Shown here one piece after another: positions 6,214 through 58,798 of a stretch of DNA of 64,000 bases. This stretch comes from Kiritimatiellia bacterium. Lineage in GTDB: Bacteria > Verrucomicrobiota > Kiritimatiellia > UBA8416 > JAWODU01. The notes beneath the pieces are model-generated. The model had not been told where the DNA came from and ran no database searches. It saw nothing but the letters and a program-made list of their open reading frames with translations. The DNA lies in contig JAWODU010000085.1 in the NCBI GenBank assembly GCA_046483125.1, positions 1,430-65,429 of the forward strand, in the 5' to 3' direction. The translations under genes were made by a program, and so were the position numbers. Positions within the stretch are counted from its first letter, which is position 1, and each line of letters opens with the position of its first letter.

Positions 6214-7059
6214 ATGAGAAGAGAGAGAAAAGTTATTGTTTGCGTTGTCTGTCTGGCCATCGTGCTTGTGCTGAACCTTCCTGCGAGCTGTGTACGGGAA
6301 ATCAAGGGGGAAACGCGGGACAGTTTCGTTCCCTTCCAGAACGTAATGTGGCTTGTGATCCGCGGCGGAGGTGATTTTCTGTCTTCGGTGACCAACGCCC
6401 GCGGGGAACTTGAAGAAAAAAAGGAAATGGAAAGAGAGATCGCGTTCCTTAACGAGAAGATTGTGAGTCTGGAAAATGCGGCGCGGGAAAACGAAATCCT
6501 GCGCGACAAACTGGGTTTCGCCAGCCGTGATGAAAGAAGCCTGAGACTCTGCGAGGTAGTGGGGCGGGACATAAGCGGATGGTGGCAGACGCTTACATTG
6601 AACGCGGGAGCTCATGAAGGCGTAAAAGAAAACATGGCGGTGATAACATCCGAGGGCCTGGTGGGGCACGTTAAATCGGTTTCCAGACATACGGCTACGG
6701 TATTGCTGATTACCGATCAGACATCGCGGGCGGCCTGCAGGCTGTCCCGGAGCGGCGCCTTCGGCGTAATTCGGGGCGCCGGTGTCGCCCTTAGCGGCAA
6801 GCACCGGCTGGAGATGCTTTATTCGGTAAGACCCTGTGTAATGGACTATATACCGAGTGATAGCGATGTAAAACCCAACGATCAAGTTTTGACTTCGGGT
6901 CTTGGAGGCGTTTACCCGTCGGGTCTTCTTGTGGGTTACGTGACCGCTATTCGGCCTTCGCCCTCGGCTCTATACCAGAGAGCCGAAGTAGTACCGGCGG
7001 CGGAACTCAGGTCTCTGAAATACGTTTTTGTGGTGATGGAGGAGGACGGAGAGGGATGA
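6214..7059 (+). CDS. mreC: Rod shape-determining protein MreC
   Basis: TM plus coiled coil (ENEILRDKL), GLVGHV, VLTSGLGGVYPSGLLVG. Follows mreB. Confidence 0.93.
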   Translation: MRRERKVIVCVVCLAIVLVLNLPASCVREIKGETRDSFVPFQNVMWLVIRGGGDFLSSVTNARGELEEKKEMEREIAFLNEKIVSLENAARENEILRDKLGFASRDERSLRLCEVVGRDISGWWQTLTLNAGAHEGVKENMAVITSEGLVGHVKSVSRHTATVLLITDQTSRAACRLSRSGAFGVIRGAGVALSGKHRLEMLYSVRPCVMDYIPSDSDVKPNDQVLTSGLGGVYPSGLLVGYVTAIRPSPSALYQRAEVVPAAELRSLKYVFVVMEEDGEG

Positions 7060-7150
7060 CGGATGACAGATGACAGATGACGGAGGACAGATGACAGACG
7101 ACGGAGGAAGGAGGACAGAGGGAGAGATTAAGATTGGGATTAAGATGGGC
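7054..7150. repeat. Mosaic repeat: (RGAYGAC)x9 followed by GATTAA/GATTGG hexamer tract
   Basis: ggatgac ggatgac agatgac agatgac ggaggac... then agggagagattaagattgggattaagatggg. Same module order at 10886 and 14554. Confidence 0.85.
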
Positions 7151-7184
7151 AGGCAAAGGTTATGCGAGACCATAGGGATATGAA

Positions 7185-7706
7185 ATGACTACGGCGGTAT
7201 CCATGATATTTCTGGTAATCGGCGCGGGGGTAATGCAGATGCTGTTCCCTGCTCCGGCCGCGTTCGGCGGGGCTCAGTTTCCTTTTCTGGCCTGTGTTGT
7301 CATTTATTACGCTCTCAACAGAAGCACCGCTCTCGCCCTGGCGGCCGCGTTTACCGCCGGTTTTCTGCACGATACACTGAGTGAAATACCGCTTGGTTAT
7401 TCGGCGGTGTGCCTGGGGATAATCGGATGGCTTATGGGATTGACCCGGGACCTGGTGGTGACCGAATCCTTCATTACGCAGGTGTTTTTCGGCGCCGTCG
7501 GGGCCATGGCGTTTACGTTCGGCCTCTACGCCCTGCTGGCGGGAGCCGATCTGGTGCAGTGCGGCTTCGGCCGGCTGTTTCTGAAGATGATAGGCAGTGG
7601 AATTTTCGGCGCTGTCTCGGCTCCGCCGGTCTTTCTGGCCGGGGCCGGCCTGGACAGGCTCCTGGGAAATATAGAAACGAGGAAAACACTGGAAGATGTT
7701 GAGTAA
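7185..7706 (+). CDS. mreD: Rod shape-determining protein MreD
   Basis: Very hydrophobic 173 aa with GFLHDTLS...LG motif, lying between mreC and mrdA. Confidence 0.85.
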   Translation: MTTAVSMIFLVIGAGVMQMLFPAPAAFGGAQFPFLACVVIYYALNRSTALALAAAFTAGFLHDTLSEIPLGYSAVCLGIIGWLMGLTRDLVVTESFITQVFFGAVGAMAFTFGLYALLAGADLVQCGFGRLFLKMIGSGIFGAVSAPPVFLAGAGLDRLLGNIETRKTLEDVE

Positions 7707-9522
7707 CCCGATTTCTGAAGCCCCCGGCCGTGTACATGTAATACTCCTTGGTGTTGCGGGGACGCTGATCTTTCTGACGGCGGCACTGTGGCACCTGCAG
7801 GTGGTAGAAGGCGGAGAGTACCGTGAGACGGGTCTGAGACAGAGTATCCGGGGCATACGTCTGCCTTCGGTACGAGGAAGAATTCTGGACCGGAACGGAG
7901 TTCGCCTCGCGGGAAGCAGGCCGAGTTACTGTATTGCCGTCTATATCGAAGAACTGAGACAGCCGGGCGGATGGTCGAACACCATAGATAGAGTTGAGCG
8001 GACCATAACGGAAGTTGAAGATGTCATAAACCTTACTTCGCCCCTGACTCGAGAGGGCATTGCCGCACATGTAAAAAGGAGACTGCCTCTGCCCCTTACA
8101 GCGTTTCGCGACATAGGAGAAAAAGGACTGGCTCGATGGTCGGAACTCGGCGGCGACAGGCCGGGCGTGGGCATACAGGTTGAAGCTCTTCGAATCTATC
8201 CGCACGGGAAGCTTGCGGGTCACTTGCTCGGGTATGTGGGCAGATCCAAACCCGCGCAAAACCCGGATGACCCGTATCACTATTACCTTCCTCAGATGGG
8301 GGGAAGAAGGGGAATTGAAGCGGTAAAGAATCGAAAGCTCACCGGCAAGGCCGGAGGCAGGCTGGTACAGGTCGACGCGTCCGGATTTGTACGGCGAGTG
8401 TTCCGCCGGAGAGACCCAGTGCCCGGCGAAGACGTAATGCTTACGATAGACGCGGATATACAGCGTCTTGCGGAAGAAGCGCTGGCATTTCAGCCGGAAT
8501 GGGAAAGCGGAAGCGTGAAGGGCGCCATAGTGGCGATGGATCCCCGCAACGGCGATGTACTTGCCATGGCGGGCGCGCCTTCTTTCGATCCCAACGTTTT
8601 CAGTCCAAGCGTATCTCCGGAGCAGTGGGAAGCGCTTATGCAGGACGAGGGCAAACCTCTGCTGAACAGGCCGGTTGCAGCGGTCTATGCTCCGGGGAGC
8701 ACGTTTAAACCTGTCGTGGCGATAGCGGCCCTTGAGAACGGAAAGGCGGACGCCGGCACGAAATTCGACTGTCCCGGGTATTTCAGGGTGGGAAACGCCA
8801 CGTTTAACTGCTGGAGCACCAGGGGGCACGGCACAATCGGCATGAGAAAGGCCCTGGAGCAGTCGTGCAACGCCTTCTTCTGCCAGCTGGGACTGCAATG
8901 CGGTTATGAATACATATACCACATGGCTTCCGCTCTGGGTTTCGGAAAGAGAACGGGAATAGCGCTTGTTTCCGAACAGCCGGGGCTTCTTCCCGACGAG
9001 GGATGGAAGAGACGACGCTACAGGGACGCGTGGCGGCCGGGTGATACGTGCAACGCATCGATAGGCCAGGGGGCGCTGTGTGTAACCCCTCTGCAGATGT
9101 GCGTAATGGTTTCGGTCCTGGCCAACGGCGGATACGTCTACCGGCCGCGGCTGATACACAGCGGAGTAAGGGCGGGGAATCTTGTGAATGCCATGGAATG
9201 GTCGGCCGACACGCTGGAATTGGTCCGGGGCGGGATGCGCGACGTTATTCAGGCTCCGCACGGAACGGGCAAGCGCGCGAAGGTGGACGGAGTGGAAATG
9301 GCGGGTAAGACGGGAACCGCGGAATACGGGGTTCCGGAAGAGAATAAAAAGCACGCGTGGATGATAGCCTTTGCGCCTTTTGGAAATCCGCGTTACGCGG
9401 TCTCGGTTGTGATTGAAGACGCTCTGTCCGGCGGAAGAAACGCTGCTCCGCGCATACAGCATCTGATGGAAGGCATTTTCGCTTTGGAGCGTTACAGAAC
9501 AGATCACGTGAAAGTAGAATGA
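7696..9522 (+). CDS. mrdA: Penicillin-binding protein 2
   Basis: RGRILDRNG, RIYPHG, PGSTFK (SxxK), SCN (SxN), GKTGTAE (KTG). Confidence 0.95.
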   Translation: MLSNPISEAPGRVHVILLGVAGTLIFLTAALWHLQVVEGGEYRETGLRQSIRGIRLPSVRGRILDRNGVRLAGSRPSYCIAVYIEELRQPGGWSNTIDRVERTITEVEDVINLTSPLTREGIAAHVKRRLPLPLTAFRDIGEKGLARWSELGGDRPGVGIQVEALRIYPHGKLAGHLLGYVGRSKPAQNPDDPYHYYLPQMGGRRGIEAVKNRKLTGKAGGRLVQVDASGFVRRVFRRRDPVPGEDVMLTIDADIQRLAEEALAFQPEWESGSVKGAIVAMDPRNGDVLAMAGAPSFDPNVFSPSVSPEQWEALMQDEGKPLLNRPVAAVYAPGSTFKPVVAIAALENGKADAGTKFDCPGYFRVGNATFNCWSTRGHGTIGMRKALEQSCNAFFCQLGLQCGYEYIYHMASALGFGKRTGIALVSEQPGLLPDEGWKRRRYRDAWRPGDTCNASIGQGALCVTPLQMCVMVSVLANGGYVYRPRLIHSGVRAGNLVNAMEWSADTLELVRGGMRDVIQAPHGTGKRAKVDGVEMAGKTGTAEYGVPEENKKHAWMIAFAPFGNPRYAVSVVIEDALSGGRNAAPRIQHLMEGIFALERYRTDHVKVE

Positions 9523-9550
9523 AGAATTGAAGAAAAAATCGAGAGAGTCT

Positions 9551-9670
9551 TTAGGCAGGATCAATCCGCAGAATCAACAGGATAGTTTTCCGTCAATTAT
9601 GCGGCGACAGCCGCATGATTGGCGGCTTATGATGCATCTCAGATCCTGTAAATCCTGTCAGAAAATTCCC
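9551..9670. repeat. GACAGGAT...ATCCTGTC inverted-end mini-element with internal CAATTATGCGGC hairpin
   Basis: Ends ttaggcaggatc / gatcctgtaaatcctgtca. Homologous to 54310-54426. Right end matches the reverse complement of 56671-56699. Confidence 0.8.
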
Positions 9671-9684
9671 AGTGGAGAGAGCTA

Positions 9685-10878
9685 GTGAACCGGTTTACAG
9701 GGGAATTCAGAAAGTTCAGAGATTCAAGCTGGTCTTTGACGACAGCGGTGTTTCTGCTGGTTATTCTCGGAGTCATGTTCGTATCCAGCGCGTCCGAAGC
9801 GGCGGGCGAAAGTTACAGCGGACTCTGGCGGCGTCATCTGCTGAGGATCGCTCTGGGGATATGCTTCTACGGCTTTTTCTCCCTTTTTGATTACCGGAAT
9901 TTGAGAAAGGCGGCATGGGGACTGTATGCGCTGGCAATTGCGCTTCTGGTTCTCGTCCTTATGGTCGGCAAAGTTGTCAATAACGCGAAGAGCTGGCTCA
10001 TGATTTTCGGTTTCGGCCTTCAGCCCGCGGAAGTGGCCAAATTCGCGGTAATTGTGCTTCTTGCCGCGGTTCTGAGCCGTCCGAATTTTTCCGTGAACAG
10101 CGCGGGAGGGCTTGCGCTTACGGTATCGGCGGGGCTTCTGCCGTTTATTCTGATAGTGATACAGCCCGATATCGGCACCGCGGCGGTTTTCATACCCCTG
10201 ACGCTGGTCATGGCGTTCGCCGGAGGCGTGTCTCTGAGAGCGCTCGGTTACGGTCTCGGCATGATGTTACTGGCGGTTGTTCTGTTGCTTTCGGCCCTGT
10301 TTTTACCCCGAAAACTTGGAATGGAGGAAGAAACCTGCCGCCGAATCGCGCGGTATACTCTGCTGAGCGAATACCAGAGGGACAGAATAGTGGCCTTCTT
10401 CAGGCCGGAGCAGGATCCGCTGGGAGTGGGATGGAGCAAAATGCAGTCCAAGATAGCCGTCGGGTCCGGCGGATGGACGGGGAAAGGCTACGGCAAAGGC
10501 ACTCAGAGCGCTTTGGGTTACCTGCCCAGCACCGTGGCCCCCACGGATTTCATCTATTCCGTTATTGCCGAAGAGACGGGGTTTGCGGGGGCTTTTGCCG
10601 TACTGCTGTTGTTCGGAGCGGCGGCGGGGAAAGGCCTGTTGATAGCTGTCAACACCAGGAACAGAATGGGCCGGCTTCTGTGCGTGGGGGTAGTGACGGT
10701 GATTTTTACTCACGTGTTCATAAACACGGCCATGACGATAGGACTGATACCGATTACGGGACTGCCCCTGCCGTTAATAAGTTACGGTGGTACATTTACT
10801 GTAGTTACGATGGCTGGTCTCGGTGTGATACAGAGCGTTTGCATTTATTCGCGCAGAAGCTACGGGATGGAAAGGTGA
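9685..10878 (+). CDS. rodA: Rod shape-determining protein RodA (SEDS family)
   Basis: QPAEVAK, QPDIGTA, QSKIAVGSGGWTGKG, TDFIYSVIAEETGF, GLPLPLISYGG. Confidence 0.95.
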   Translation: MNRFTGEFRKFRDSSWSLTTAVFLLVILGVMFVSSASEAAGESYSGLWRRHLLRIALGICFYGFFSLFDYRNLRKAAWGLYALAIALLVLVLMVGKVVNNAKSWLMIFGFGLQPAEVAKFAVIVLLAAVLSRPNFSVNSAGGLALTVSAGLLPFILIVIQPDIGTAAVFIPLTLVMAFAGGVSLRALGYGLGMMLLAVVLLLSALFLPRKLGMEEETCRRIARYTLLSEYQRDRIVAFFRPEQDPLGVGWSKMQSKIAVGSGGWTGKGYGKGTQSALGYLPSTVAPTDFIYSVIAEETGFAGAFAVLLLFGAAAGKGLLIAVNTRNRMGRLLCVGVVTVIFTHVFINTAMTIGLIPITGLPLPLISYGGTFTVVTMAGLGVIQSVCIYSRRSYGMER

Positions 10879-10885
10879 GTAGCAC

Positions 10886-11348
10886 GGAGGACGGATGACG
10901 GACGACAGAGGACGGAGGGAGAGATTAAGATTGCGATTAAGATTATGAATAAGATGTGGGGAGATAAAGATAAAGATAAAGATTGGGATTAAGATGGGGA
11001 GAGGGGAGGGACACTTAGTCCATAGACTTAGTCGCAACACTTGGTCCTTTACGCTTACTCGACCCGCTTTGCCCGTAGTTGTTGAGAAGGAATCGGTCAA
11101 GTTTGGCGGTTAAGTGTAACCGTCCGCCGCGGCCGCGGCGGAAAGGGTGGCGACTAAGCGAGTCGATTAAGAGTGATAGATTAAGATTAAGATTGGGATT
11201 AAGATGGGGAGGAGAGAAGATGTTTAGACAGGATCAACAGGATGCTTGGGGCTCTGCTCCCCTTGCATCGCGTCCGGCGGCACTACAGTACCTCCGATAC
11301 GCCGCCAGCGATGCGGGCTGTTGCGTCACGCATTTCGCTTCCGCAGGA
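10886..11348. repeat. Composite repeat mosaic (heptamers, GATTAA tract, CCGCCGCGGCGG module, partial structured element copy C at 11214-11348)
   Basis: Segments match 7054-7150, 3580-3720 and the reverse complement of 4665-4803. Confidence 0.85.
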
Positions 11349-11416
11349 GACTCTCCGCATTTGGCCTTGCGGGACTGGCCCGCCGCACCTATACTGCGTG
11401 CTCAGGAAGGCGAACT

Positions 11417-11863
11417 ATGGCCAAGCACGTATTCGACATCGGCGCTGACGGAATCGACAGCGAAAAAATCATTCGCGAAATTCGCGCCGCGGTAACGGAA
11501 AAAATGCGTTCCGGGACTTATTCCGACAGCGTCCGCGAGACAATCGCCAAACGTACAAACCTTGACGAACTCAAGAACGAGGAAAACTTTCTCCTGCATT
11601 ATCTCGATTGTCTCCGCGAAGCGGTCTTTGTCGATATTAACGACTTTCAGATCCACGAACGCCGCTCCAGATTCCCCGGTCTTTTCGTTCTACTCAAGCG
11701 TGTCATCTGGAAACTGCTCAAATTCTACACTTACCGCCTCTGGTCTCAACAGAACCAGACCAACGGATTACTACTGTCCGCCATTGAAGGAGTGGAAAGC
11801 CGTTATCGGACCAGGATCGAGGAACTGGAAGAGCGCATTCGGGAACTTGAATCGCGGAAGTGA
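11417..11863 (+). CDS. Hypothetical helical/coiled-coil protein (148 aa)
   Basis: ATG at 11417 after AGGAAGG. KRVIWKLLKFY...QQN..N plus a C-terminal coiled coil, a pattern seen in glycan-locus hypotheticals. Confidence 0.7.
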   Translation: MAKHVFDIGADGIDSEKIIREIRAAVTEKMRSGTYSDSVRETIAKRTNLDELKNEENFLLHYLDCLREAVFVDINDFQIHERRSRFPGLFVLLKRVIWKLLKFYTYRLWSQQNQTNGLLLSAIEGVESRYRTRIEELEERIRELESRK

Positions 11864-11997
11864 CGCTCCTGCCGGGCATGTTTACTGTAAGATCGGGCAA
11901 GAGTCTTTCAGGAAGGTCGAGAAGGACGGAAAGAGGTTCTTATATCTGCCGAAAAATCTTTCCGAACTTCCCGATCTTCCTGTGAAATCTCCCGTAT

Positions 11998-12441
11998 CTA
12001 CTTGCTTTCTTCGGCCCTTGCAAGAGCGTTGATCTTTTCCAGGGCGCGGGATATCTCGCTTATTGACGCGCGGATGCGATTCACCTGTTGCAGGACTTCA
12101 CTGAACCTGTGTTCACCGCCGGAATGAGATTTCTCAAGTTCGCCGCGTCTTTCATTTAATTCTTCCAGCTCGCTCTGAAGCTGTTTTGCCTTGAGTTCCG
12201 AAGCGGCCAGAGAACGACGCAGATTCAGAATCCGGATTTCTTTTTCCTCTTCAGTGCTGTCTATATCGGTAAGTTCCATTCCCTCGGGTATGGGCACCTG
12301 AACGTGCCTGCCGCAGTCCGTACACGGTATGGTTAGACCCGCGCCGCGATAATCTATGGCGAGACTTTTACCGCAATGCGGGCAGTCAAACACGATGTCC
12401 GTGTCTTTAATCTCCGAGGAATCGTCCAAGGGTTCTTCCAT
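11998..12441 (-). CDS. Hypothetical Zn-ribbon plus coiled-coil protein
   Basis: FDCPHCGKSLAID...IPCTDCGRHVQVP followed by a heptad-rich helix. Directly downstream of rpmB. Confidence 0.8.
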   Translation of the reverse strand: MEEPLDDSSEIKDTDIVFDCPHCGKSLAIDYRGAGLTIPCTDCGRHVQVPIPEGMELTDIDSTEEEKEIRILNLRRSLAASELKAKQLQSELEELNERRGELEKSHSGGEHRFSEVLQQVNRIRASISEISRALEKINALARAEESK

Positions 12442-12452
12442 GACATTAGGGG

Positions 12453-12680
12453 TTACGCCTTAGTAACCTTGCCCTGCCGAATACAGGAAGCGCAAACCAG
12501 CCGTCGAACAACCCGCCCGTTTTCGACAACGCGTATCTTCTGAAGGTTAGGCTGAAACTTACGCTTGTTAACGGCCGTTGTATGCAGGCCGATACCGCCC
12601 TTTTTCTTGGCCATACCGCGGCGGATGATCCTGTTGCCCGTAGCGGACCCTTTGCCGCAAATACTGCAGATTCTTGACAT
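12453..12680 (-). CDS. rpmB: 50S ribosomal protein L28 (Zn-binding C+ form)
   Basis: MSRICSICGK...GN...KRKFQPNLQ...CASCIR. Confidence 0.96.
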   Translation of the reverse strand: MSRICSICGKGSATGNRIIRRGMAKKKGGIGLHTTAVNKRKFQPNLQKIRVVENGRVVRRLVCASCIRQGKVTKA

Positions 12681-13216
12681 TTCTTACACCTCCAACCCTT
12701 TCTGCCAACGCCCTCAACTCTCAAGCATAGTAAACCCGGCTCCTGCAAACAAGCAGGAAAACCCGGAAACGGCAATTGTAATTACGGCCTGCGCCCCCTG
12801 CCGCCTCGCGCGGCAGGACTCATCGGCCATTATGCGAATTGCCGCCTCAGAAAAGAGAAGGTTTCTCAATCCCGATTCTTGCTTATGCGAGACGCAAGCC
12901 CCGCTGAAACCCCTTTGGAGCCCGCTTCTTATGACAATGTCGGGTGAATGTCAACATTTTGCAAATTCCTTTTCACCGCCCGCCGCATCGGTGCCGGTTC
13001 TCGTTTCTGGCACATCTATTGCTCAAATTACAGACAGCCCGCAGTCGGCCCGGTACGAGAGGATGACAGTGGTTCGGCAGAGCCTACGAGGCTATTGTTG
13101 TGCAAACATCCAAAGAAACCAGGCTGACTGCAGGGCTTCTTTTTATCCGGGTTTTTGCAGCACCTGCTTTTTGCCAATTGCAATCCGGTTCCCGACAACC
13201 TAGTATACGGGCCGGT

Positions 13217-14362
13217 ATGAGAAACCGAGCGTTCACTATCTGTGCCGTTATTCTGCTTGCCGCCGGGCAGGTAGAAGCCGAAACCCGCCCCATTACTGAA
13301 ATCCATACGGCCGTAAAGGAAAGAAGTATCGCTCAGCTCTCGTTACTGCTCGCCGAGGCCACAATCAGGGAAGCAAACACCCCCAGCAAGGGCGGCTCCA
13401 CGCCTCTCCACTGGGCCGCGGTTTACAACTTTCCTCAAGCGGTTCCCATGCTCGTCGACAAAGGCGCTGAGGTCAACGTCAGGGCGGATAACGGTTCCAC
13501 GCCTCTCCACTGGGCCGCGAAAAAGAACAACATGGAAGTTCTGAAAACACTTTTACGCCACGGCGCCAGGGTGGACGCCAGGTCCAATGTCGGGTACACG
13601 CCTCTGCACTGGGCGGCCATAGGTCAAGCCCCTGACACTGCGGCCGAACTCGTGGCAAAGGGAGCTGATGTCAATGCGGAGGGCAGAAGCGGCATCACGC
13701 CGCTTCACTGGGCCGTTCGTAATGACACTCACACCATAATAGAACTACTGGTAAAAAACGACGCCGACCTTTACTCCGAAGCTCAGGACGGATCGACTCC
13801 GCTTTCCTGGGTCCGCAGTAAAGAAACCAGAGAATTACTGGAAAAGCTGATACAGGAAAAGATCCGCAGGGACGACGAAAAACCGGTACAGGTTGTCGAG
13901 CCGTTATCTCCTTCGAAGGGTGTTATCGATTTTCGCGATGGAGCGGTTTATTCTGGAGAAATACGTAACGGGGAAATGCATGGTGAGGGAACTCTTTCCT
14001 TTCCGAACGGGGAGAAATACACGGGGACATGGGTCAAAGGTAAAAAACACGGTAAGGGCATTTATACATTTCCCGGCGGAGAACGGTACCAGGGCGGCTG
14101 GAAAAGGGGACGGATTCATGGTCGCGGTGTATATACTTTTTCCAATGGAGATCAAATCAAGGGCCGCTGGGAAGACGGCATTCTGGCCGAAGGCACGGGA
14201 ACATACCGTTTCGCCGACGGCGCGTCGTACAACGGGGAATGGGAAAACGACAAAATGTGGGGAACCGGTACCTATACCACCGACAAAGACAAAGCCTTTG
14301 AAGGCTACTGGGTCGCCAACAGGTATGCCGGAACAAAACCGCCCCCCTCCGAATCCGAATGA
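13217..14362 (+). CDS. Secreted ankyrin-repeat plus MORN-repeat protein
   Basis: Signal peptide MRNRAFTICAVILLAAGQVEA, five TPLHWAA-type ankyrin repeats and about six YxGxWxxGxxHGxG MORN repeats. Confidence 0.9.
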   Translation: MRNRAFTICAVILLAAGQVEAETRPITEIHTAVKERSIAQLSLLLAEATIREANTPSKGGSTPLHWAAVYNFPQAVPMLVDKGAEVNVRADNGSTPLHWAAKKNNMEVLKTLLRHGARVDARSNVGYTPLHWAAIGQAPDTAAELVAKGADVNAEGRSGITPLHWAVRNDTHTIIELLVKNDADLYSEAQDGSTPLSWVRSKETRELLEKLIQEKIRRDDEKPVQVVEPLSPSKGVIDFRDGAVYSGEIRNGEMHGEGTLSFPNGEKYTGTWVKGKKHGKGIYTFPGGERYQGGWKRGRIHGRGVYTFSNGDQIKGRWEDGILAEGTGTYRFADGASYNGEWENDKMWGTGTYTTDKDKAFEGYWVANRYAGTKPPPSESE

Positions 14363-14414
14363 CCCGCCGCCCGCGATGCGGGCTGGGAGCAACCACGGAT
14401 TTCAGGCATGTTCG

Positions 14415-14534
14415 CCGATCGGGGGATCGGCTCCTACAAAAGCCCTGCGGGTGAGACACCCGCTACTACAACGCCCGGAAGGTGTAATAACTCGTGTCCT
14501 CACGCGTGCATGTAGGAGGCGAACCATGTTCGCC
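14415..14534. repeat. Cluster of three GTAG-type REP-like palindromes
   Basis: Minus strand GTAG-GAG-CCGATC-CCCC-GATCGG (14415-14437). Minus strand GTAG-TA-GCGGGTG-TCT-CACCCGC (14447-14469). Plus strand GTAG-GA-GGCGAA-CCATG-TTCGCC (14512-14534). Confidence 0.7.
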
Positions 14535-14553
14535 GAAGGTCGGAACTGAGGGC

Positions 14554-14680
14554 AGATAACGGATGACGGACGACAGAAGACAGACTACGGACTACGGACT
14601 ACGGACTACTAAGGGAGAGATTATGATTAAGATGTGGGGAGATAAAGATAAAGATTAAGATTGGGATTAAGATGTGAGGC
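14554..14680. repeat. (RGAYNAC)x8 heptamers plus GATTAA/GATAAA tract
   Basis: agataac ggatgac ggacgac agaagac agactac ggactac x3, then agggagagattatgattaagatgtggggagataaagataaag, as at 10914-11000. Confidence 0.85.
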
Positions 14681-15048
14681 GAGAAGGCTTTTAGACAGGA
14701 TCTACAGGATCCTAAGAGCACTGCCCACACTGTCTCTACTGCTTTGCTCTTCTTGCATCGCGGATAAGCGGCGCTACAAAACCTCCAGTACGCCGCCCGC
14801 GATGCGGCAAACCGCGTGATGAATTCCGCTTCCGTAGGATTCGCAAATCGGATCGCAAGCTTGCCGCTTCTACAAGGCCCCGCGGGCTGAGCTGTATTCG
14901 TATACGCGAAGCCCGCGGAAACGAAGCAGAAGCGGTGAGATCGCGGTTCGATTTGCGAACGAAATGCGTGACGCAGGGTGGAGGGCAAGAACAGAGCCCA
15001 AAGACGCCGAACCCCTCCCCCACACGCCGGCCTGCGTGGCGCGGGGGG
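14681..15048. repeat. ~360-nt structured repeat element, copy B (inverted relative to copy A)
   Basis: Long near-identical blocks with the reverse complement of 4444-4803, e.g. ggaaacgaagcagaagcggtgagatcgcggttcgatttgcgaacgaaatgcgtgacgcaggg. Confidence 0.88.
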
Positions 15049-15102
15049 AGGACACACTCCCCTTGACACGAACCTCATTCTCCCACACATTTCTCTGCAT
15101 CC

Positions 15103-17610
15103 ATGAAAGACGAGTACCCATACGCCGAAATCGAAAAAAAATGGCAGGATTACTGGCGCGAGCAGGGCACTTTCAAAACCGACATCTCGCAATTTCAGAA
15201 CAAGTACTACTGCCTCACCATGTTCCCCTACCCCTCGGGGACCATGCACGTCGGCCACGGACGTAACTACATCATCGCCGACGCGCTTGCCCGCTACAAG
15301 AAGATGAAGGGGCTGAACGTCCTTGCGCCGATGGGCTGGGACTCGTTCGGGCTTCCAGCGGAAAACGCAGCCAAGGACAAGGGAGTGCATCCCCGGGAAT
15401 CCACAAAGGCCAATATCGCCCGGATGAAGCAACAGCTTAACGAATGGGGTGTCGGCTACGACTGGGATCGCGAAATATCAACGTCGCATCCGGAATACTA
15501 CAAATGGACACAGTGGATATTCCTCAAACTGTACGAGCGGGGTCTGGCTTACCAGAAAACCGCGCCCGTGAACTGGTGCGATTTCTGCACAACCCTGGCA
15601 AACGAAGAGGTTCTGCCTGACGGCACCTGCGAACGCTGCGGCAGGGGAGTGCGGAAACGCGACCTGAAGCAGTGGTTTTTTAAAATCACCGAATACGCTC
15701 AGCGCCTGCTGGACGATCTGGACCTCCTGGACCGATGGCCGGAAAAGGTGCGCCACATGCAGACCAACTGGATAGGCCGGTCTGAAGGATGCAGGGTCGA
15801 TTTCAGGATCACTGAAACCGGCGATTCCTGCCCGATTTTCACAACCCGTCCCGACACCATCTACGGTGTGACTTTCATGGCTATAGCTCCGGAGCACCCT
15901 CTCGTCGCCGGACTCATGGCCGGACATGAACGTGAAAAAGAAGTTATGGAATTCGTAAACCGCCAGCTCGTGATTTCTTCAGCCGTGCGGTCCGACGAAG
16001 CCACGGAGAAGGAAGGCGTGTTCACGGGTTATCACGTTACTAATCCTTACAACGGTGAAACCTCCGAGCTCTGGGTAACGAACTATGTCCTTATGGAATA
16101 CGGAACCGGCATTGTTATGGCGGTTCCCGCCCATGATCAGCGGGATTTTGAATTCGCGAAAAAATATTCCCTGCCGGTCAAAGTCGTGATCCAGAACCCG
16201 GACCGGAATCCGGACGTTTCGGCAATGACCGAAGCTTACGCGGACGACGGCATTCTGGTTGAATCGGGTCCTTTCACGGATCTCAACAACCGCGAAGCAG
16301 TAAGGAAGATGACGGAATATGCCTCTGAAAAGGGATTCGGCGGATTTGAAGTCACTTACCGGATCCGTGACTGGCTTATCAGCCGCCAGAGATACTGGGG
16401 CGCCCCGATCCCCGTGGTGCATTGCAAAAAGTGCGGCACGGTCCCGGTTCCGGAAAAAGATCTGCCAGTACTGCTTCCGGAAGACGTTGATTTCACCGTG
16501 ACAAAGGGCAATCCCCTGGCCTGTCGCGAAAATTTCGTGAACACCGCCTGCCCCGAATGCGGGGGGGCGGCCAGGCGTGAGACCGACACCATAGCGCAAT
16601 GGCTTTGTTCATGCTGGTATTTCATGCGTTACGTCAATCCCAGGCTTAAGGACCGGCCTTTCAATAAAGAAGACGTGGACCGCTGGCTCCCCGTGGACCA
16701 GTACATCGGAGGAGTCGAGCACGCCGTCCTGCACCTCCTGTACTCCCGCTTCATAGTCAAGGTCCTTTACGACGCGGGATACTGCTCTTTCAGCGAACCC
16801 TTCGCCGCCCTGTTCACCCAGGGGATGATCTGCAAAAAAAATGACAAAGACGGCAAGCTGTACAAAATGTCCAAATCCAAAGGCAACGTGGTCAGCCCCG
16901 ATGAACTCGTGAAGAATTACGGGGCCGATACCCTGCGGCTGTACACGCTGTTTATAGGGCCGCCGGAAAAAGACGCGGAATGGAACGATCAGGCTATAGA
17001 AGGCGCGTCGCGTTTCCTACGCCGCGTCTGGCGCCGGGTCCGGCAGAATGTCGAAAGTATCCGCGCCGCAAAAGGCGGGGAAAGCCGTCTTCAGGACATG
17101 CGGGAACCGGAACGCGAACTGTATCGTAAAATCAACGAAACGGTAGAACGGGTAACCAGAGATATGGAAGGCGCGTTCCACTTCAATTCGGCCATAGCCC
17201 GCGTGATGGAACTCGCTAATGCCGTGGACGATTCCGGTATTGACCCAAAAGGGGAAGGACAGGCCGCGGCGGTATATCGCAAAGCCGTCGAAACGCTGTT
17301 GCTCCTTCTTTCACCCTTCACTCCACACCTTGCCGAGGAGCTTTGGGAACAGATCGGGTTCCAGCCTGCTATTCTCGATGCCCGGTGGCCCTCGGTCGAC
17401 ACCGACGGCCTCCGGAGCGAAGAGGTTGAGATTGTTCTCCAGGTAAACGGCAAAGTCCGGGGCAGGATCACGGTTCCGGCCGGGTCCGACCGCAAGGTCC
17501 TGCAGGAAAAGGCCCTGAATAACGAAGGGGTAAGCAGGCATCTTCAGGGCAAAACGGTACGCAAGGTGGTAGTGGTACCCGATAAAATCGTCAACATCGC
17601 GGCAAGCTGA
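15103..17610 (+). CDS. leuS: Leucine--tRNA ligase
   Basis: MFPYPSG, HVGH (HIGH-like), [34 protein letters not shown]. Confidence 0.98.
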
Positions 17611-17618
17611 CCGCACTC

Positions 17619-18964: not shown

Positions 18965-18968
18965 ACCA

Positions 18969-19025
18969 GGAGACTTTTTGACAGGATCAACCCGCCCCGG
19001 CGGATTAATCCCGTCAAATAGTCCC
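18969..19025. repeat. Compact GACAGGAT-type inverted repeat enclosing a CCGCC-NN-GGCGG palindrome
   Basis: ggagactttttgacaggatcaa-cccgccccggcgg-attaatcccgtcaaatagtccc. Confidence 0.7.
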
Positions 19026-22179: not shown

Positions 22180-22186
22180 CCGGTAG

Positions 22187-22463
22187 TGTCAAAAGTTCCA
22201 TGAACACGGACGAATGACGAGTTGGAACACTTAATCGCACACTTAACTGCTACCCTTTGTCGTATACGCTTAAACGACTCTGTTGCAACGGCTGGCACAT
22301 GACGAGTAAGCAGGTCGGTTAAGGGTGTGCGTCCGCCGCGGCGGAAAGGGTGGCGGTTAAGAAAGCGTTTAAGTGTATTGGGAAAAGGGGGAGAGAGTCG
22401 AAAAACGGCTAATGACCTGAAACAAGGACAGTTACACAGATAAACGTGCTGTCAGCTTTGACA
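22187..22463 (+). mobile_element. MITE-like element copy 1 (TGTCAAA...TTTGACA ends)
   Basis: Positions 22216-22463 are about 97% identical by hand alignment to the reverse complement of 30396-30644. No ORF and no clear TSD. Confidence 0.6.
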
Positions 22464-22491
22464 ATACTGCGACTACAAGGAGGGAAAAATT

Positions 22492-30367: not shown

Positions 30368-30395
30368 ATCGGCCTTTCTCCCTTTATCTTCGTAC

Positions 30396-30679
30396 TGTCA
30401 AACCTGACAGCACGTTTTTCTGTGTAACTGTCCCTTTTTTCAGGTCATTAGCCGTTTTTCGACTCTCTCCCCCTTTTCCCAATACACTTAAACGCTTTCT
30501 TAACCGCCACCCTTTCCGCCGCGGCGGACGCACACCCTTAACCGACCTGCTTACTCGTCACGTGCCGGCCGTTGCAACAGAGTCGTTTAAGCGTATACGA
30601 CAAAGGGTAGCGGTTAAGTGTGCGATTAAGTGTTCCAACTCGTCCTACATCCGTTTTTGTCGCGGTAGAACTTTTGACA
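30396..30679 (-). mobile_element. MITE-like element copy 2 (inverted copy of 22187-22463)
   Basis: Near-identical reverse complement with the same TGTCAAA termini. Confidence 0.6.
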
Positions 30680-47032: not shown

Positions 47033-47038
47033 AAGGAT

Positions 47039-48046: not shown

Positions 48047-48047
48047 T

Positions 48048-49918: not shown

Positions 49919-49942
49919 GTCGAATGTCCGCGTGAGCGGGGC

Positions 49943-51127: not shown

Positions 51128-51761
51128 GAGTGTCTGAATCCTTTCTTTCACATGCCTGCGCGTTCCGAATGAACGACCGAACCATATTAAGATCTTTTTT
51201 GCCCGGCCTGGCCTCAACACCGCTGGCCACGTCCACCGCCTGGGGGCGCACCTTCCTGACGGCTTCCGCTACGTTGTCCGGATTCAGACCTCCGGCAAGA
51301 ACAACGGGAAATTCAGCCGCCAGTTCGGATGCCTTCCGCCAGTCAGCCGTTACTCCGGTCCCGCCGTAAATGCCGGGGACTACAGCGTCCGCCACGTATC
51401 TCGCCGCCGGCCATTCACGGGGCCGTGGATGCCAGTCATTTCCCCGAAGTCTGAGCGCGCGCCACAGCGGCACTTCCATGGCTTCGAAATCTTTCCTGGT
51501 TTCATCCCCGTGCAATTGAACGGCGTACAGCCCGCAGTCCCGGGCCACGCTTTCAATGAAGTCCCTTTTTTCATTCACAAAGACACCGATCGTTTGCGTG
51601 TCGGCGGGCAGTTCGGCCGCGATCTCTCCGAGCTTTCGTGCCGATATACTCCTGGGCGATTTCCCATACAGGACAAACCCGAGGTAATCCGCACCGTATT
51701 CCAACGCGGCCCTGGAATCTTCCAGATTCGTAAGGCCGCAAATTTTGACCTCAGTGCTCAT
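51108..51761 (-). CDS. trpF: Phosphoribosylanthranilate isomerase
   Basis: [36 protein letters not shown]. Confidence 0.96.
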
Positions 51762-53013
51762 CGCCTCGGCCGTTGTCATGCCCGGGCGGATTCCCGGGCC
51801 CGGTATCCCGTCCGATATTCAGACGCTCTCCCGCCTTATCGACGATTTCCGCCATTGTTACAGGTTTCTTGAGCCATGTGTGAATCCTGCCGTCCCCGAC
51901 GATTTCCTTCAGACCGTCGGTAACATCAAAAGCCGTGCAGAATATGAACCGCGGACACTCGCGGCCTTCGCTTTCACACATCTCGCGGATCTTGTAGAAG
52001 GCCTCCTCGCCATCCAGCTCCGGCAACAGTATATCCATCAATATAACGCCGTAGTGGTTATCCTTGAATCTGTACAAGGCCTCCAGTCCGTCTCCGGCTT
52101 CGTCGACGCTTACGTCAGGAAACGCAGATTTCAGGGCCTCAACAAAAATCTGCCGGATTTTTTCTTCGTCGTCGACCACCAGCATTCTGGAAGAATCACA
52201 GCCCCTCAGCGGTTCGGATGAAACCGGACTGCTTTCAGCGGTTTTATGTTCAATTTTCTCTTCATCGGTCTGTTCTCTCTTGATCCGGTTTAGAATTGAA
52301 TTGATGCGCTCAACCTGCTCGAGATAATCGCTTCTCTTATCCAGTTCGGCCAGGCACGTCAATATCTGCAGTGGATCGTTGAGTTCCTGCGTGACCGCGG
52401 ACACGGTCTCCAATGCCGTCTGGGCTTTTTCCGCTTCCAGAAGTTTTTCCTGCGCGGCCGCCAGATCCTGTTCCGCCTGTTTTCTGCCTGTAGCGTCTCT
52501 TATAAAGAAACAGAACAGGCGGTTTTCTTTCCGCATCATCTGGTTTACAACTATTTCAGCGTAAAAACGTGAATTATCCGACCGAAGACATACCGCTTCC
52601 AGAACCGTATATTTATTCTGCCCCACATTCTCGCCCAACACGTCCAGGACTCTCTTGTCCGCGCCCGAAACCAGATCAAGAATGTTCCTATCGCAAAGTT
52701 CGGCCCTTTCGAGGCCGAATTTGTGTTCCGCGCGGGCGTTTACCTCCAGAATCGAACCGTCGAGAGATGTAATGAACACGGCGTCATATATTGTGTGAAA
52801 AAGCTGGTCGTATTTCGTTTCCTCGGAATCGTCCGCCCTGCTCTGCCGGACGGCCGGATGCTGTATCACCTGCTGAGTGATATTCATCCTGTCGGTACCG
52901 AACTCGGCGCTTTCCTCCTCGCCGTAGACACGGACCGGCTCTTTCCTGGTAGTCGGTTTGTAAGAAGATGCCTTCTCGGATCGCCTGATTATTCTTTTGG
53001 GCTTTTTCCCCAT
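51751..53013 (-). CDS. PAS domain + degenerate HisKA-like helix + receiver domain protein
   Basis: PAS (DAVFITSLDGSILEVN), TQELNDPL, REC (VVDDE...MDILLPELDG...CTA...KKP). No HATPase domain. Confidence 0.85.
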   Translation of the reverse strand: MGKKPKRIIRRSEKASSYKPTTRKEPVRVYGEEESAEFGTDRMNITQQVIQHPAVRQSRADDSEETKYDQLFHTIYDAVFITSLDGSILEVNARAEHKFGLERAELCDRNILDLVSGADKRVLDVLGENVGQNKYTVLEAVCLRSDNSRFYAEIVVNQMMRKENRLFCFFIRDATGRKQAEQDLAAAQEKLLEAEKAQTALETVSAVTQELNDPLQILTCLAELDKRSDYLEQVERINSILNRIKREQTDEEKIEHKTAESSPVSSEPLRGCDSSRMLVVDDEEKIRQIFVEALKSAFPDVSVDEAGDGLEALYRFKDNHYGVILMDILLPELDGEEAFYKIREMCESEGRECPRFIFCTAFDVTDGLKEIVGDGRIHTWLKKPVTMAEIVDKAGERLNIGRDTGPGNPPGHDNGRGDEH

Positions 53014-53035
53014 GGCTCATTCATCTCTTTATGAG

Positions 53036-53188
53036 TTAACGGCCGGTCAATTCCCGCAATTGTTTCTCCGGATTGTCATTGCGCATCAGGGTCTCTCCAA
53101 TGAGAAAGCCATCATAACCCGCCGCTTCAAGTTTTTCAACATCCATCCTCGTGCCGATACCGCTTTCGGTAATCGACAGGCGGGAAGC
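53036..53188 (-). pseudogene. trpC: 3' remnant of indole-3-glycerol phosphate synthase
   Basis: Translates ASRLSITESGIGTRMDVEKLEAAGYDGFLIGETLMRNDNPEKQLRELTGR*, the TrpC ESGI and L(I/V)GE.LMR motifs, at the canonical trpD-trpC-trpF position. The N-terminal ~200 codons are absent. Confidence 0.88.
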
Positions 53189-53277
53189 GTGGACGTCCCC
53201 TCTCCTCCTCAACCAATTACCATCCGTGTAATCCGTGGTTCTCCCATGCGGTATGCGTCTATCACTCTCTTAATTGA

Positions 53278-54285: not shown

Positions 54286-54309
54286 GTTTGTTTTCCCCTT
54301 TCCCGGAGA

Positions 54310-54519
54310 TTTTTTTGACAGGATTTACAGGATCCGGGAGACCCCAGCACGCCGGCAATTATGCAAACACAGCCGCATAATTGCCGACCGGCTATCCTGT
54401 TGATCTTGTTGATCCCGTCTAATCCCTTTTTCGATCCAATAAAGAACTCTCGTTTCCCTGGACTCTCCGAATCCGCGCCATCAGTGGACGTCCCCTCCCC
54501 CATCCCGCATCCCGTATTC
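54310..54519. repeat. GACAGGAT-type mini-element plus GTGGACGTCCCCTC motif and heptamers between trpG and trpD
   Basis: ttttgacaggatttacaggatc...ggcaattatgc..gcataattgcc...atcctgttgatcttgttgatcccgtctaa. gtggacgtcccctc at 54484-54497 is identical to 53189-53202. Confidence 0.82.
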
Positions 54520-54523
54520 ATCC

Positions 54524-55111: not shown

Positions 55112-55114
55112 GGT

Positions 55115-56578: not shown

Positions 56579-56647
56579 ACTGCGCTCCATCGGGCACTGA
56601 CCCTTCAGGCCCGCTGAGCATCCTATATCCCGCTCCCCCCCGAATCA

Positions 56648-56722
56648 AGCGCTTCCGTAAGAAAGGCCGGGGGAATTTTCTGACAGGATCTACGGGATCT
56701 ACGGGATTATAAGAGCGCTTCC
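56648..56722. repeat. Half GACAGGAT element flanked by a 9-bp direct repeat AGCGCTTCC
   Basis: gggaattttctgacaggatctacgggatc (56671-56699) matches the reverse complement of the right end of 9551-9670. agcgcttcc at 56648-56656 and 56714-56722. Confidence 0.6.
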
Positions 56723-56976
56723 ACAACGTCTCTACTGCCCTCTGAGGTCTTACCAAACCGCCACACCTGGATTTCTGCGGTCGCAAGTTGATTGTGGGTC
56801 AACCCCGGCATGAGTGTCCAGTCGACGAGGATCTCGACGAGGATCGAGACGAAGATGAGCCCCCTCGCGATAAACCCCATAAAACTTGGTCTTTCTGAAA
56901 GCCCGTTTCAGGGGTGGCGTTTGCTAAGACGTCAGTACCCTTGACGAAGGGATTCGAACCGTTGAATATAGCCCCC

Positions 56977-57840: not shown

Positions 57841-57845
57841 GAACG

Positions 57846-58658
57846 TTATCGGGCTTTGAAAAGCCTCGCCGCGTTTGCCGCGGTAATTTCGGCTAACTCC
57901 TCAACCGCGCACCCTCTCAATTCGGCTATTGTCTCCGCGATACATTTAAGGTGCGCCGGCTCGTTCCTTTTCCCCCGGTGCGGCTCGGGCGCCAGGCGGG
58001 GAGTATCCGTTTCTATCAGCAGGCGGTCGTCCGGGACCTCGCGGACCGCCCTGTGCAACCCGCCGGCACCGCGAAAGGTTACGATCCCGCTGAAGCTCAC
58101 GTACATCCCCAGTTCCACAATCTGCCCGGCGAAAGAAATACTGCCGGTGAAACAATGAAGCACACCCCCTCTTCCCTCAGACACTAATTCCCGGTCGATA
58201 CACGCGTCTATTATTTCGACAGTGTCATCTTCGGCTTCCCTGCTGTGTATTATCGCAGGCACACGCGCCTGCGCGGCAATTTCAAGCTGGCGCCTGAAAA
58301 GATCCCTCTGTGCAGGCGCGGTTTCCCCGCTGTAATGGTAATCGAGGCCGATTTCGCCAAGAGCGACTGCCCGGTTCGGCCCGCTTTCACTCCCGCTCAA
58401 TAAGCCGGCCAACTCGTCCAGGTCGCTTTCGCGTTCCCCTTTCCCGAACGAAGCCGCCTCGTCCCGGTCGTACCCCACGGCCGCGCGGACCGTCTCCGGA
58501 CACAACCGCGCGGCGTTCAGGGCGGCCGCGTTTTCCGCCGGTGAGCCGCCCACGGCGATAATACCCGACAGACCCGCTTCTTTCGCCCGCTCGACTACGG
58601 AAACAATGTCTTCATCGGAGGCAAAGCTCCCGAAATGCGCATGTGAATCGTAAAACAT
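57846..58658 (-). CDS. TatD family hydrolase
   Basis: DSHAH, GEIGLDY, IHSREA, LHCFTG, LIETDTP, NEPA. Confidence 0.95.
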   Translation of the reverse strand: MFYDSHAHFGSFASDEDIVSVVERAKEAGLSGIIAVGGSPAENAAALNAARLCPETVRAAVGYDRDEAASFGKGERESDLDELAGLLSGSESGPNRAVALGEIGLDYHYSGETAPAQRDLFRRQLEIAAQARVPAIIHSREAEDDTVEIIDACIDRELVSEGRGGVLHCFTGSISFAGQIVELGMYVSFSGIVTFRGAGGLHRAVREVPDDRLLIETDTPRLAPEPHRGKRNEPAHLKCIAETIAELRGCAVEELAEITAANAARLFKAR

Positions 58659-58770
58659 CTACCCTGCGCCCTCTACTGTCCCAATCCGTGCCATCAGTAT
58701 ATGCCTCCTCCCGCACTTGCCCCGTCTTCGTCCCGTCCGCCTAAGACGGACGTAACTATGCCGAGGCAAG

Positions 58771-58798
58771 CACTCGACACTCGACACGCGGCACCTCA
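58771..58798. repeat. Heptamer tandem array (CACTCGA-like)x4
   Basis: cactcga cactcga cacgcgg cacctca. Confidence 0.55.

Follow-up and report, generated by a model that had tools for sequence, protein, structure and literature searches.

Modular repeat mosaics without cargo genes at gene boundaries of a Kiritimatiellia bacterium

Between the genes of a 64,000-nt stretch of DNA from a Kiritimatiellia bacterium (contig JAWODU010000085.1, positions 1,430 to 65,429 of the forward strand; hereafter the window) lie composite repeats, here called mosaics, in which short tandem arrays, fixed junction words and long palindromes follow each other in a recurring order. The mosaics are homologous units and not the outcome of independent slippage, since the copies have junctions in common, at 76-96% identity. 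They are best read as comparable to bacterial interspersed mosaic elements (BIMEs) and short tandemly repeated repetitive (STRR) sequences, tolerated as read-through spacers. In the fuller explanation, which we consider reasonably probable, they are cargo-less repeat DNA of a periodic-arm class that has spread by copying, was inserted at gene boundaries and is kept as polarity-neutral. A selected role in RNA processing is the main rival.

Composition and statistics of the mosaics

A first-pass annotation of the window had singled out three mosaics, which on inspection of the sequence are present where they had been placed, at 7041-7154, 10884-11348 and 14554-15048. The module order that it gave is also borne out: heptamers are followed by AGGGAGAGATTA, next by GATTAA/GATAAA hexamers and finally by hairpin modules. 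The mreC stop codon (7057-7059) lies inside the first heptamer tract, which starts at 7041, and the second tract begins 6 nt past the rodA stop (10878). Related modules follow the stops of the mrdA, HIT, M16, trpG and trpD genes, as had been reported, and a further mosaic, missing from the first-pass annotation, lies on the minus strand at 4393-4960.

Expected motif counts were obtained from dinucleotide-preserving shuffles of the window. The word GATWAAGAT has 18 matches against 0.86 expected, and none of 100 shuffles reaches 18; AGGGAGAGATTA has 3 exact matches (0.14 expected) and GACAGGATNNAC, with at most one mismatch, has 16 (2.8 expected). All matches of GATWAAGAT and of AGGGAGAGATTA, and all seven exact matches of GACAGGATNNAC, are intergenic. 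Intergenic DNA makes up ~11% of the window (~7 kb, of which ~3.5 kb consists of repeat modules) and holds seven of the eight period-7 arrays detected with Tandem Repeats Finder (TRF); those at 7041, 10884 and 2640 start 0-13 nt from a stop codon. Segment 10940-10996 is 96% identical to 14618-14674, and 7093-7146 is 87% identical to 10890-10943. A 263-nt element occurs twice, at 22206-22467 and 30392-30654, with 96% identity.

All-against-all comparison of the intergenic regions of the window defined five recurring types of module:

Module A: period-7 arrays with units GGATGAC/AGATGAC/GGACGAC, GACTACG or AAAGCTG/AAAGCAG.
Module B: the AGGGAGAGATTA junction and GATTAAG hexamer or 12-mer tracts (period 6/12).
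Module C: palindromic units of ~45-130 nt with arms of ACAGGATnn nonamers (period 9), at 9545-9672 (mrdA/rodA), 54308-54422 (trpG/trpD) and 18968-19025 (after HIT); solo arms at 4765-4807, 11222-11244, 14689-14711 and 56675-56707.
Module D: a nested palindrome of ~350 nt, with full copies at 4446-4807 (minus strand) and 14677-15048, a truncated copy at 11210-11348 and, immediately behind the Ank/MORN stop, a fragment of 21 nt (14365-14385).
Module E: a long hairpin of ~150-260 nt with TTAAG words spaced ~12 nt; full copies at 22206-22467 and 30392-30654, shorter ones at 3590-3717 and 11107-11158.

The D copies are 87% identical over 306 nt (4393-4960 mosaic against 14747-15047) and D folds with z = -7.8; for the full E copies the folding z is -5.7. 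In the hairpins with nonamer arms the 7-nt word ACAGGAT is retained, and the 2-nt spacers are not complementary between the arms.

The modules are combined at the following sites:

2640..2670, minus strand: short period-7 array that reads (TTCTTTG)n in the sense direction, ~13 nt past the stop codon of a 217-aa zinc-ribbon gene (TRF and sequence).
3560..3800: E-type copy between the 194-aa and 217-aa genes, with TTAAG-bearing words around CCGCCGCGGCGGAAAGGGTGGCGG; it is opposed to transcription and is supported by 88% identity over 59 nt to 22320-22378 and by its fold.
4393..4960, minus strand, upstream of the ArsR-like 194-aa gene: AAAGCTG/AAAGCAG heptamers (4815-4852), ACAGGAT nonamer arm and nested palindrome D of ~350 nt (4446-4807), GATTAAG tract (4396-4445). 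The order is A, Shine-Dalgarno sequence plus ATG, C arm and D, then B, ending 1 nt before the start of the 194-aa gene.
7041..7154, plus strand, mreC/mreD spacer: A+B unit of ~11 purine-rich GGATGAC-type heptamers that include the mreC stop, then AGGGAGAGATTA, then GATTAAG hexamers.
9545..9672, plus strand, mrdA/rodA spacer: C-type palindromic unit with ACAGGATnn-type arms and an inner hairpin, CAATTATGC...GCATGATTG.
10884..11348, plus strand, after rodA: heptamers, AGGGAGAGATTA and GATTAA/GATAAA hexamers to 11003, E-like hairpin (11011-11165), second GATTAAG tract (11165-11210), nonamer arm and truncated D (11210-11348).
14363..15052, plus strand, from the Ank/MORN gene to leuS: D fragment (14365-14385) and a small repeated segment, heptamers passing from GGATGAC to GACTACG (14554-14611), AGGGAGAGATTA and hexamers (14612-14676), nonamer arm and full D (14677-15048).
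18968..19025, plus strand, 4 nt past the HIT stop: mini C-type hairpin, GACAGGATCAAC...ATTAATCCCGTC.
22203..22470, plus strand, after the M16 peptidase stop: full E element, its arms with TTAAG words at ~12-nt spacing.
30390..30657, minus strand: second full E, inverted, after the stop of an anti-sigma/VWA gene and before a 2191-aa open reading frame (ORF).
53190..53277, minus strand, directly after the trpD stop: short purine-rich mosaic with ATTAAGAGAGTGATAGA..., an ACGGAT heptamer-like part and GAGGGGACGTCCAC, abutting the truncated trpC.
54300..54523, minus strand, trpG/trpD spacer: G-rich heptamer-like tract behind the trpG stop, followed by a C-type palindromic unit (54308-54422).
56671..56860, plus strand, trpE/YGGT divergent region: nonamer arm GACAGGATCTACGGGATCTACGGGAT with the beginning of a D-like body, followed by a 12-mer array, (TCGACGAGGATC)x3.
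58660..58790, TatD/Na-Ca-exchanger divergent region: small segment AATCCGYGCCATCAGT (also at 54462-54485) and (CACTCGA)x2.4.

Within D, the tip stem (14876-14920 against 4580-4625) carries four fully compensated base-pair changes between the two full copies, CCGCGGGCT/AGCCCGCGG in one variant and CCGCCCTCC/GGAGGGCGG in the other, and the remainder of D is ~90% identical. D was also considered as a protein gene, as a 138-aa ORF (4399-4815) with a Shine-Dalgarno sequence and ATG covers it. The start codon of this ORF is not preserved in the other copy, and its product would be an Arg-rich text of low complexity that spans a palindrome, hence D was not accepted as a gene.

Orthologous junctions and the same words in other genomes

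The 194-aa ORF at 3808-4392 encodes an ArsR-like protein of conserved length, present in Lentisphaerae, Kiritimatiellia and Verrucomicrobiota and normally located after glmS-glmM. Through exact-protein look-ups it provided the handle for retrieving orthologous regions; as a core gene of constant length it was ruled out as cargo. Three of the loci obtained (L117, L120 and L123; 69-75% identity on the 194-aa protein) allowed comparison of the mre operon at orthologous sites, as proposed in the first-pass annotation. In these relatives, mreD either shares 4 nt with mreC or begins after a gap of 21 nt, rodA shares 4 nt (ATGA or GTGA) with mrdA, and an RNase E/G gene lies 40-80 nt after rodA. The corresponding window spacers measure 125, 162 and 539 nt and consist of an A+B unit, a C unit and a full mosaic, respectively, and none of the window modules is present in the three loci. 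The compact mre operons of the three relatives thus indicate that the mosaics are lineage-specific insertions. The ends of the inserts repeat words of the old junctions, ATGAC in mreC/mreD and RTGAA in mrdA/rodA, which coincide with the required stop and start codons; they could reflect a short target duplication, microhomology or the need for a stop and a start. The flanks of the C units contain no consistent target-site duplication.

Three window mosaics coincide with gene loss or rearrangement. Upstream of the 194-aa gene, four relatives (L117, L120, L122 and L123) have glmS and/or glmM; both are absent from the window, where the 647-nt stretch 4393-5039 stands in their place. The RNase E/G gene that is next to rodA in the relatives no longer follows rodA here. 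Behind the post-trpD mosaic, trpC is reduced to the C-terminal 48 positions of the indole-3-glycerol-phosphate synthase (IGPS) profile (207-254 of 254; 53050-53200, minus strand), followed by a PAS/response-regulator gene (51751-53013) and by trpF, trpB and trpA. The earlier statement that the mosaics split operons without apparent loss of genes is therefore correct only in part, and fails for trpC, which is truncated beside a mosaic.

Arrays of other composition occur in the relatives. A cargo-less hairpin with CCAACAG/CGTTGGC heptamer arms follows the same 194-aa gene in L120. In L122, from a Verrucomicrobiota metagenome-assembled genome (MAG), (TAACCGA)8 and (ACTGATA)12 fill spacers of the V-ATPase operon (3836-4696) almost to the next start codon, with no Shine-Dalgarno-like sequence between array and start and no ATG within the arrays.

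The words of the window recur further afield. In a 15-base pattern scan of genome contigs, most matches of which are due to chance, GGGAGAGATTA plus GATTAAG tracts are real in four genomes: Chthoniobacter flavus Ellin428, one Kiritimatiellota MAG and two Verrucomicrobiota MAGs. A longer pattern retrieved 34 metagenome stretches (L125-L158) with such tracts, all of them intergenic. In about half of these, GGGAGA(GATTAAG)n is one arm of a long hairpin with (CTTAATC)n as the opposite arm; the others are solo arms. Hairpins with ACAGGATnn arms were found in L122, in L140 and in eight IMG/VR stretches, the neighbours of which look PVC-like (Planctomycetes-Verrucomicrobia-Chlamydiae; DUF1559). No transposase stands beside these eight, and plasmid BLAST of D and E gave no match; in this limited search space, no parent autonomous element with the same ends was found.

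Known repeats and small-gene cassettes with periodic arms

The first-pass annotation had regarded the mosaics as a family like BIMEs or the hairpin-forming doublets (REPINs) of repetitive extragenic palindromic (REP) sequences. What stands of this is a nested, modular, non-coding family at gene boundaries that is comparable to BIMEs; no features of the REP type or of REP-associated tyrosine transposases (RAYTs) were found, nor was a transposase. Like the BIMEs, REP mosaics and REPINs of enterobacteria, the mosaics are intergenic assemblies of palindromic units and short linker motifs that often lie behind stop codons and within operons, share the transcription of the operon and vary in presence from relative to relative. 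Unlike REP sequences, the window has no recurring ~35-nt GTAG-headed unit; the palindromes C, D and E measure 45-350 nt and have arms of tandem repeats. It differs from BIMEs and REPINs also in its tandem arrays of 6, 7 and 9 nt, in its far longer nested palindromes and in the purine richness of one strand. The further proposal that gene 3' ends are targeted was not borne out: one mosaic lies in a divergent promoter region (4393-5039), and in other genomes the words occur in both orientations.

The closest likeness is to the cyanobacterial STRR arrays and the GGGAATC/GGGGATT arrays of Xanthomonas and Nostoc, which have period 7, are almost all intergenic and mostly lie near an upstream stop codon (PMC4692102), and the window arrays share these properties. 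In Xanthomonas and Nostoc, heptameric intergenic arrays are located 0-50 nt from stop codons, singly or as inverted, convergent pairs that can form stem-loops; the Xanthomonas and cyanobacterial arrays are transcribed and conserved between related species and have no known function (PMC4692102). Those arrays use one type of unit per genome and have been discussed as G-quadruplex formers, whereas the window follows no G-triplet rule and joins several types of unit to fixed non-repetitive junctions, hexamer tracts and large palindromes.

Transposable elements of the miniature inverted-repeat type (MITEs), Correia elements and the BOX elements of streptococci (A-Bn-C) are likewise short, non-autonomous and modular, with inverted ends and variable internal units, insert in operon spacers and affect mRNA. 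The C units have terminal inverted repeats in their inverted ACAGGATnn arms. In contrast to those elements, there is no clear target-site duplication, no parent insertion sequence with the same ends was found, and the arms are tandem repeats instead of unique terminal inverted repeats. Mycobacterial interspersed repetitive units (MIRUs) are also repeats of operon spacers, with small ORFs that overlap the flanking stop and start, and a chain of this kind is present in mreC/mreD; it is found at one window site, however, and MIRUs are tandem units of 40-100 nt, not arrays of 6-9 nt with palindromes. What sets the window apart from known repeats is the combination of multiple array types, junctions and palindromes, the sharing of words across the phylum and the link to cassette arms in period and polarity.

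This last link goes back to a statement in the first-pass annotation, that similar periodic flanks accompany four-helix-bundle genes (PF05635/TIGR02436; bAvd-like, 23S rRNA intervening-sequence (IVS) protein) and GxxExxY genes (PF13366/TIGR04256). The statement was tested and holds. Consensus sequences, which themselves proved to be true members of PF05635 and PF13366, served as queries. The test covered 35 distinct four-helix-bundle genes, 31 of them on IMG/VR contigs and 4 on cellular ones, and a period of 7 fits best in 28 of the 35 upstream flanks. Strong periodicity was seen in 17 upstream and 8 downstream flanks, all with period 7 except one downstream of period 11, and in none of 340 flanks after shuffling. 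Both arms of a cassette repeat one unit in inverted orientation, the unit changing from cassette to cassette, and they are polar: upstream arms are G-rich in 18 of 19 cases, downstream arms C-rich in 10 of 10. The four cellular cassettes are inserted between co-oriented housekeeping genes, a few to tens of nt from the upstream stop. Inverted arrays of period 8-9 (types CGCAGAGA, CACAGAGG, ACACAAAGA and CGCAGATAA) likewise enclose each of the four GxxExxY genes (L215, L216, L218 and L221) and abut the start and stop codons. A literature search on GxxExxY/TIGR02436 flanks and on PVC repeats found nothing relevant in the collection searched.

The PF05635 genes (L178-L214, L167, L169, L173 and L176) thus sit in the loop of hairpins with period-7 arms, and several of the cassettes have a TTGACA...TATAAT-like stretch between the arm and the ATG. 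Many members of both families are on contigs of 0.5-2 kb, consistent with repeat arms breaking metagenome assemblies.

The window arrays match the 5' arms of such cassettes in period and polarity. As in the periodic-armed PF05635 and PF13366 cassettes, the period is 7 or 8-9, the G-rich strand is upstream and the location is between housekeeping genes, near the upstream stop; in contrast to them, the window has no cargo, cargo remnant or C-rich partner arm, and its units are mostly different. The putative link therefore rests on period and polarity, not on sequence. The absence of a cargo gene, already reported in the first-pass annotation, was upheld by tblastn with the consensus and 240 family members, which detected nothing significant and no remnant in the window (best E = 0.014). 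No C-rich partner array was found there, only arrays that are G-rich on the sense strand; the eight small ORFs beside modules belong to none of the cargo families; and no ACAGGAT arms around a gene-sized loop were found in IMG/VR. That the window units are 'empty cassettes' is something we infer, because the arrays are solo G-rich arms and not inverted pairs.

Strand asymmetry, proposed mechanism and alternatives

All eight unstructured A/B segments, located on both DNA strands, are 64-80% purine on the sense strand, with 0-16% C, against an average C content of 28%; overall, purines account for 73% of the unstructured arrays and C for 10%. Folding favours the sense RNA by 19-22 kcal/mol in the full E copies and by 16 kcal/mol in one D copy, and the three C units all point the same way relative to transcription. 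One copy each of E and C is oppositely oriented or better folded as antisense. Comparison of sense and antisense folding of the GATTAAG hairpins at 38 loci was uninformative, because the G-rich strand always folds better.

The spacers appear open to read-through. No hairpin followed by a T-run, as in an intrinsic terminator, is present on the sense strand of the mosaics, bar an internal stem of D, and scans for sigma-70 promoters and terminators gave no excess in them. The C units have a T-run before the hairpin and an A-run after it; sorting orientation by terminator formation was dropped, as this pattern is the same on both strands. GGATGAC carries TGA in all three frames and GATTAA carries TAA, and Shine-Dalgarno-like GGAG runs precede the next start. 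Stops in all frames were considered as the reason for the heptamers, but only ~10 of 17 units have a sense stop, which is not convincing. In mreC/mreD, two ORFs of 5 and 37 codons, linked through ATGA overlaps, lead from the mreC stop up to a point 1 nt short of the mreD ATG; no such chain was found in the other window mosaics. Rfam identified only a tRNA-Met in the window, and a permissive search of 3300-15200 gave a chance miRNA match on both strands.

Among these observations it is the strand asymmetry alone that suggests action at the RNA level. Rho loads on RNA that is C-rich, G-poor, unstructured and untranslated, from which we infer that an insert persists within an operon only if it is C-poor or tightly folded. 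Such survival would account for the orientation of the mosaics without an assigned function.

In the mechanism proposed here, a modular, non-coding, non-autonomous repeat family would have entered gene boundaries in this lineage. Its units would be of the same sequence class as the polar inverted arms around PF05635 and PF13366 genes elsewhere. They carry no gene, being either cargo-less hairpins (C and E) or solo G-rich arms (the heptamer and hexamer tracts), and they may have spread via some trans-acting enzyme or by recombination among copies. Persistence in operons would be due to polarity neutrality, with stops in all frames, Shine-Dalgarno-like GGAG and no hairpin plus T-run, and with mosaic RNA that may be either C-poor, making a poor Rho loading site, or tightly folded. 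The main effect would be to turn overlapping, translationally coupled gene pairs into separated ones, and the hairpins may be sites for RNase III/E processing.

Several observations weigh against this explanation. Neither the window nor any of the loci examined contains a transposase, a RAYT or a reverse transcriptase. Target-site duplications are not clear, and ATGAC and RTGAA at both insert ends may mirror the need for stop and start codons. The relatives are distant (69-75% on one protein), so that insertion is neither datable nor shown to be recent. Solo GATTAAG arms elsewhere occur in both orientations to flanking genes, according to a heuristic gene call, and the sense bias of the window may be local. 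The (TTCTTTG)n array at 2640-2670 is not purine-rich. Only one of the seven window heptamer units equals a cassette-arm unit (GACTACG, in L209), with ~0.1 expected, which is not significant. Finally, a GATTAAG hairpin with fully conserved arms occupies the same kdsB/pyrG site in two ~90% identical genomes, with the kdsB stop codon inside GGGAGAGATTAA; this fits stable, possibly selected spacers. The elements are thus stable over short evolutionary distances and absent over long ones.

The main rival holds that the mosaics are selected cis-acting RNA elements that tune operon expression by RNase III/E processing, 3'-end protection or translational uncoupling and re-initiation. We regard it as unlikely, even though the favoured sense strand (purine-rich in 8/8 segments, with better sense folding of E and of one D copy), the common orientation of the three C units, the mini-ORFs that bridge the mreC/mreD spacer to 1 nt before the mreD ATG, the perfect conservation of GATTAAG hairpin arms next to genes that have diverged by ~10% and the four compensated pair changes in the D tip stem are all in its favour. 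The relatives do without the elements at the same junctions, and the same modules are present in promoter regions and beside unrelated genes; one E and one C copy have the other orientation or a better antisense fold, and Rfam gives no match. Compensated changes in a palindrome can also come from intrastrand template switching without selection, and the relay of mini-ORFs is confined to one site, the L122 arrays being devoid of ATG.

Somewhat more doubtful is a strict form of the cassette explanation, in which each site once held a PF05635 or GxxExxY gene and the cargo and C-rich 3' arm were later deleted. Polar cassettes with arms of period 7 or 8-9 are real and common, they are located between housekeeping genes near the upstream stop, and the window arrays are polarised like their 5' arms; GACTACG is the arm unit of cassette L209, and at 4813-4815 a Shine-Dalgarno sequence and ATG follow the heptamers at the position expected for a cargo start. 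However, none of the 240 queries detected a cargo remnant (best E = 0.014), the window has no C-rich partner arm anywhere, IMG/VR has no ACAGGAT-armed unit with a gene-sized loop, and the eight small ORFs adjacent to modules are not of the cargo families. Homology among the three A+B units extends across the junction, so their spread was cargo-less.

It is improbable that the arrays were born in place by replication slippage, as an excess of heptameric simple sequence repeats without mobility, and resemble each other by convergence. Many bacteria have an excess of such repeats, for which slippage has been put forward as an explanation (PMC4692102, citing Mrazek 2007), unit sequences vary from site to site in L122 and L120, and the ancestral mreC/mreD junction (GGAGGAAGAATGAC in L117) is similar to the GGATGAC unit. 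Slippage does not fit the non-repetitive junction AGGGAGAGATTA and the module order common to three sites, the duplication of long non-periodic modules (D, 306 nt; E, 263 nt) or the occurrence of the same words in other classes of the phylum, and separate local seeds without shared non-repetitive sequence are already contradicted for the A+B units.

Least probable of all are DNA-level binding arrays for a conserved protein (a nucleoid protein, recombinase or uptake machinery): the retention of ACAGGAT next to non-complementary 2-nt spacers suggests that the word itself is constrained, and GATTAAG and ACAGGAT are conserved across distant PVC lineages, but heptamer units vary freely between sites, orientation tracks transcription instead of a fixed DNA strand, no protein emerged as a candidate, and the words, in contrast to most uptake sequences, are limited to intergenic DNA. 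The GGA and ATCAA words also brought a CsrA sponge and IHF sites into consideration.

The preferred explanation, cargo-less repeat DNA inserted at gene boundaries, has a possible extension of wider bearing. Heptameric intergenic repeats have been noted since 1990 without explanation, and to our knowledge the four-helix-bundle/IVS proteins and GxxExxY nucleases are very large families with no known biology. The present data tie the repeats to both families, the genes of which lie in the loop of hairpins armed with polar arrays. We tentatively suggest that hairpins with tandem-repeat arms are one widespread, essentially undescribed class of mobile cassette, with the PVC mosaics and the STRR and Xanthomonas arrays as cargo-less derivatives. 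If so, a cassette would consist of a G-rich array, a small gene and a complementary C-rich array, inserting between genes, with a bAvd-like four-helix bundle (period 7) or a GxxExxY PD-(D/E)XK nuclease (period 8-9) as cargo, and would be removed from read-through transcripts as a stem-loop, like rRNA intervening sequences. The cargo-less derivatives would still spread, reshape operons, split coupled genes and mark deletion breakpoints; in this PVC genome, cargo-less arrays split the essential pairs mreC/mreD and mrdA/rodA, which normally overlap, and sit at deletion breakpoints (trpC, glmS-glmM). Should the link hold, cassette movement, excision at the RNA level and the tolerance of operons for hundreds of untranslated bases become testable. 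The repeats account for spurious 'MFRQD...' and 'IKIKIK' ORF calls and, because many family members are on contigs of ~1 kb, probably also fragmented assemblies.

The surrounding window has a G+C content of 55.7% and carries PVC-type housekeeping genes, assigned by Pfam and NCBIfam, among them mreB, mreC, mreD, mrdA and rodA (5040-10878), leuS, HIT, an M16 peptidase and trpE-G-D ... trpF-B-A. It encodes a protein of the Minf_1886 family, typical of Planctomycetes and Verrucomicrobia, and for one conserved protein the nearest relatives bear the label Lentisphaerae, Kiritimatiellia or Verrucomicrobiota. Between rodA and leuS, two direct mosaic copies (10884-15048) enclose 3.2 kb with an unassigned 148-aa ORF, a zinc-ribbon/coiled-coil 147-aa ORF, a 109-aa ORF and an ankyrin/MORN protein. 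The inverted E elements at 22206-22467 and 30392-30654 bracket an 8-kb block with DUF1844, a 147-aa ORF, DUF2752 and the 2191-aa ORF, which has no Pfam match; the pair could allow inversion of the block between them. A sequence of ~50 nt (…GTGCTGTCAGCTTTGACAATAC) that is the same in both E copies sits just upstream of the next gene.

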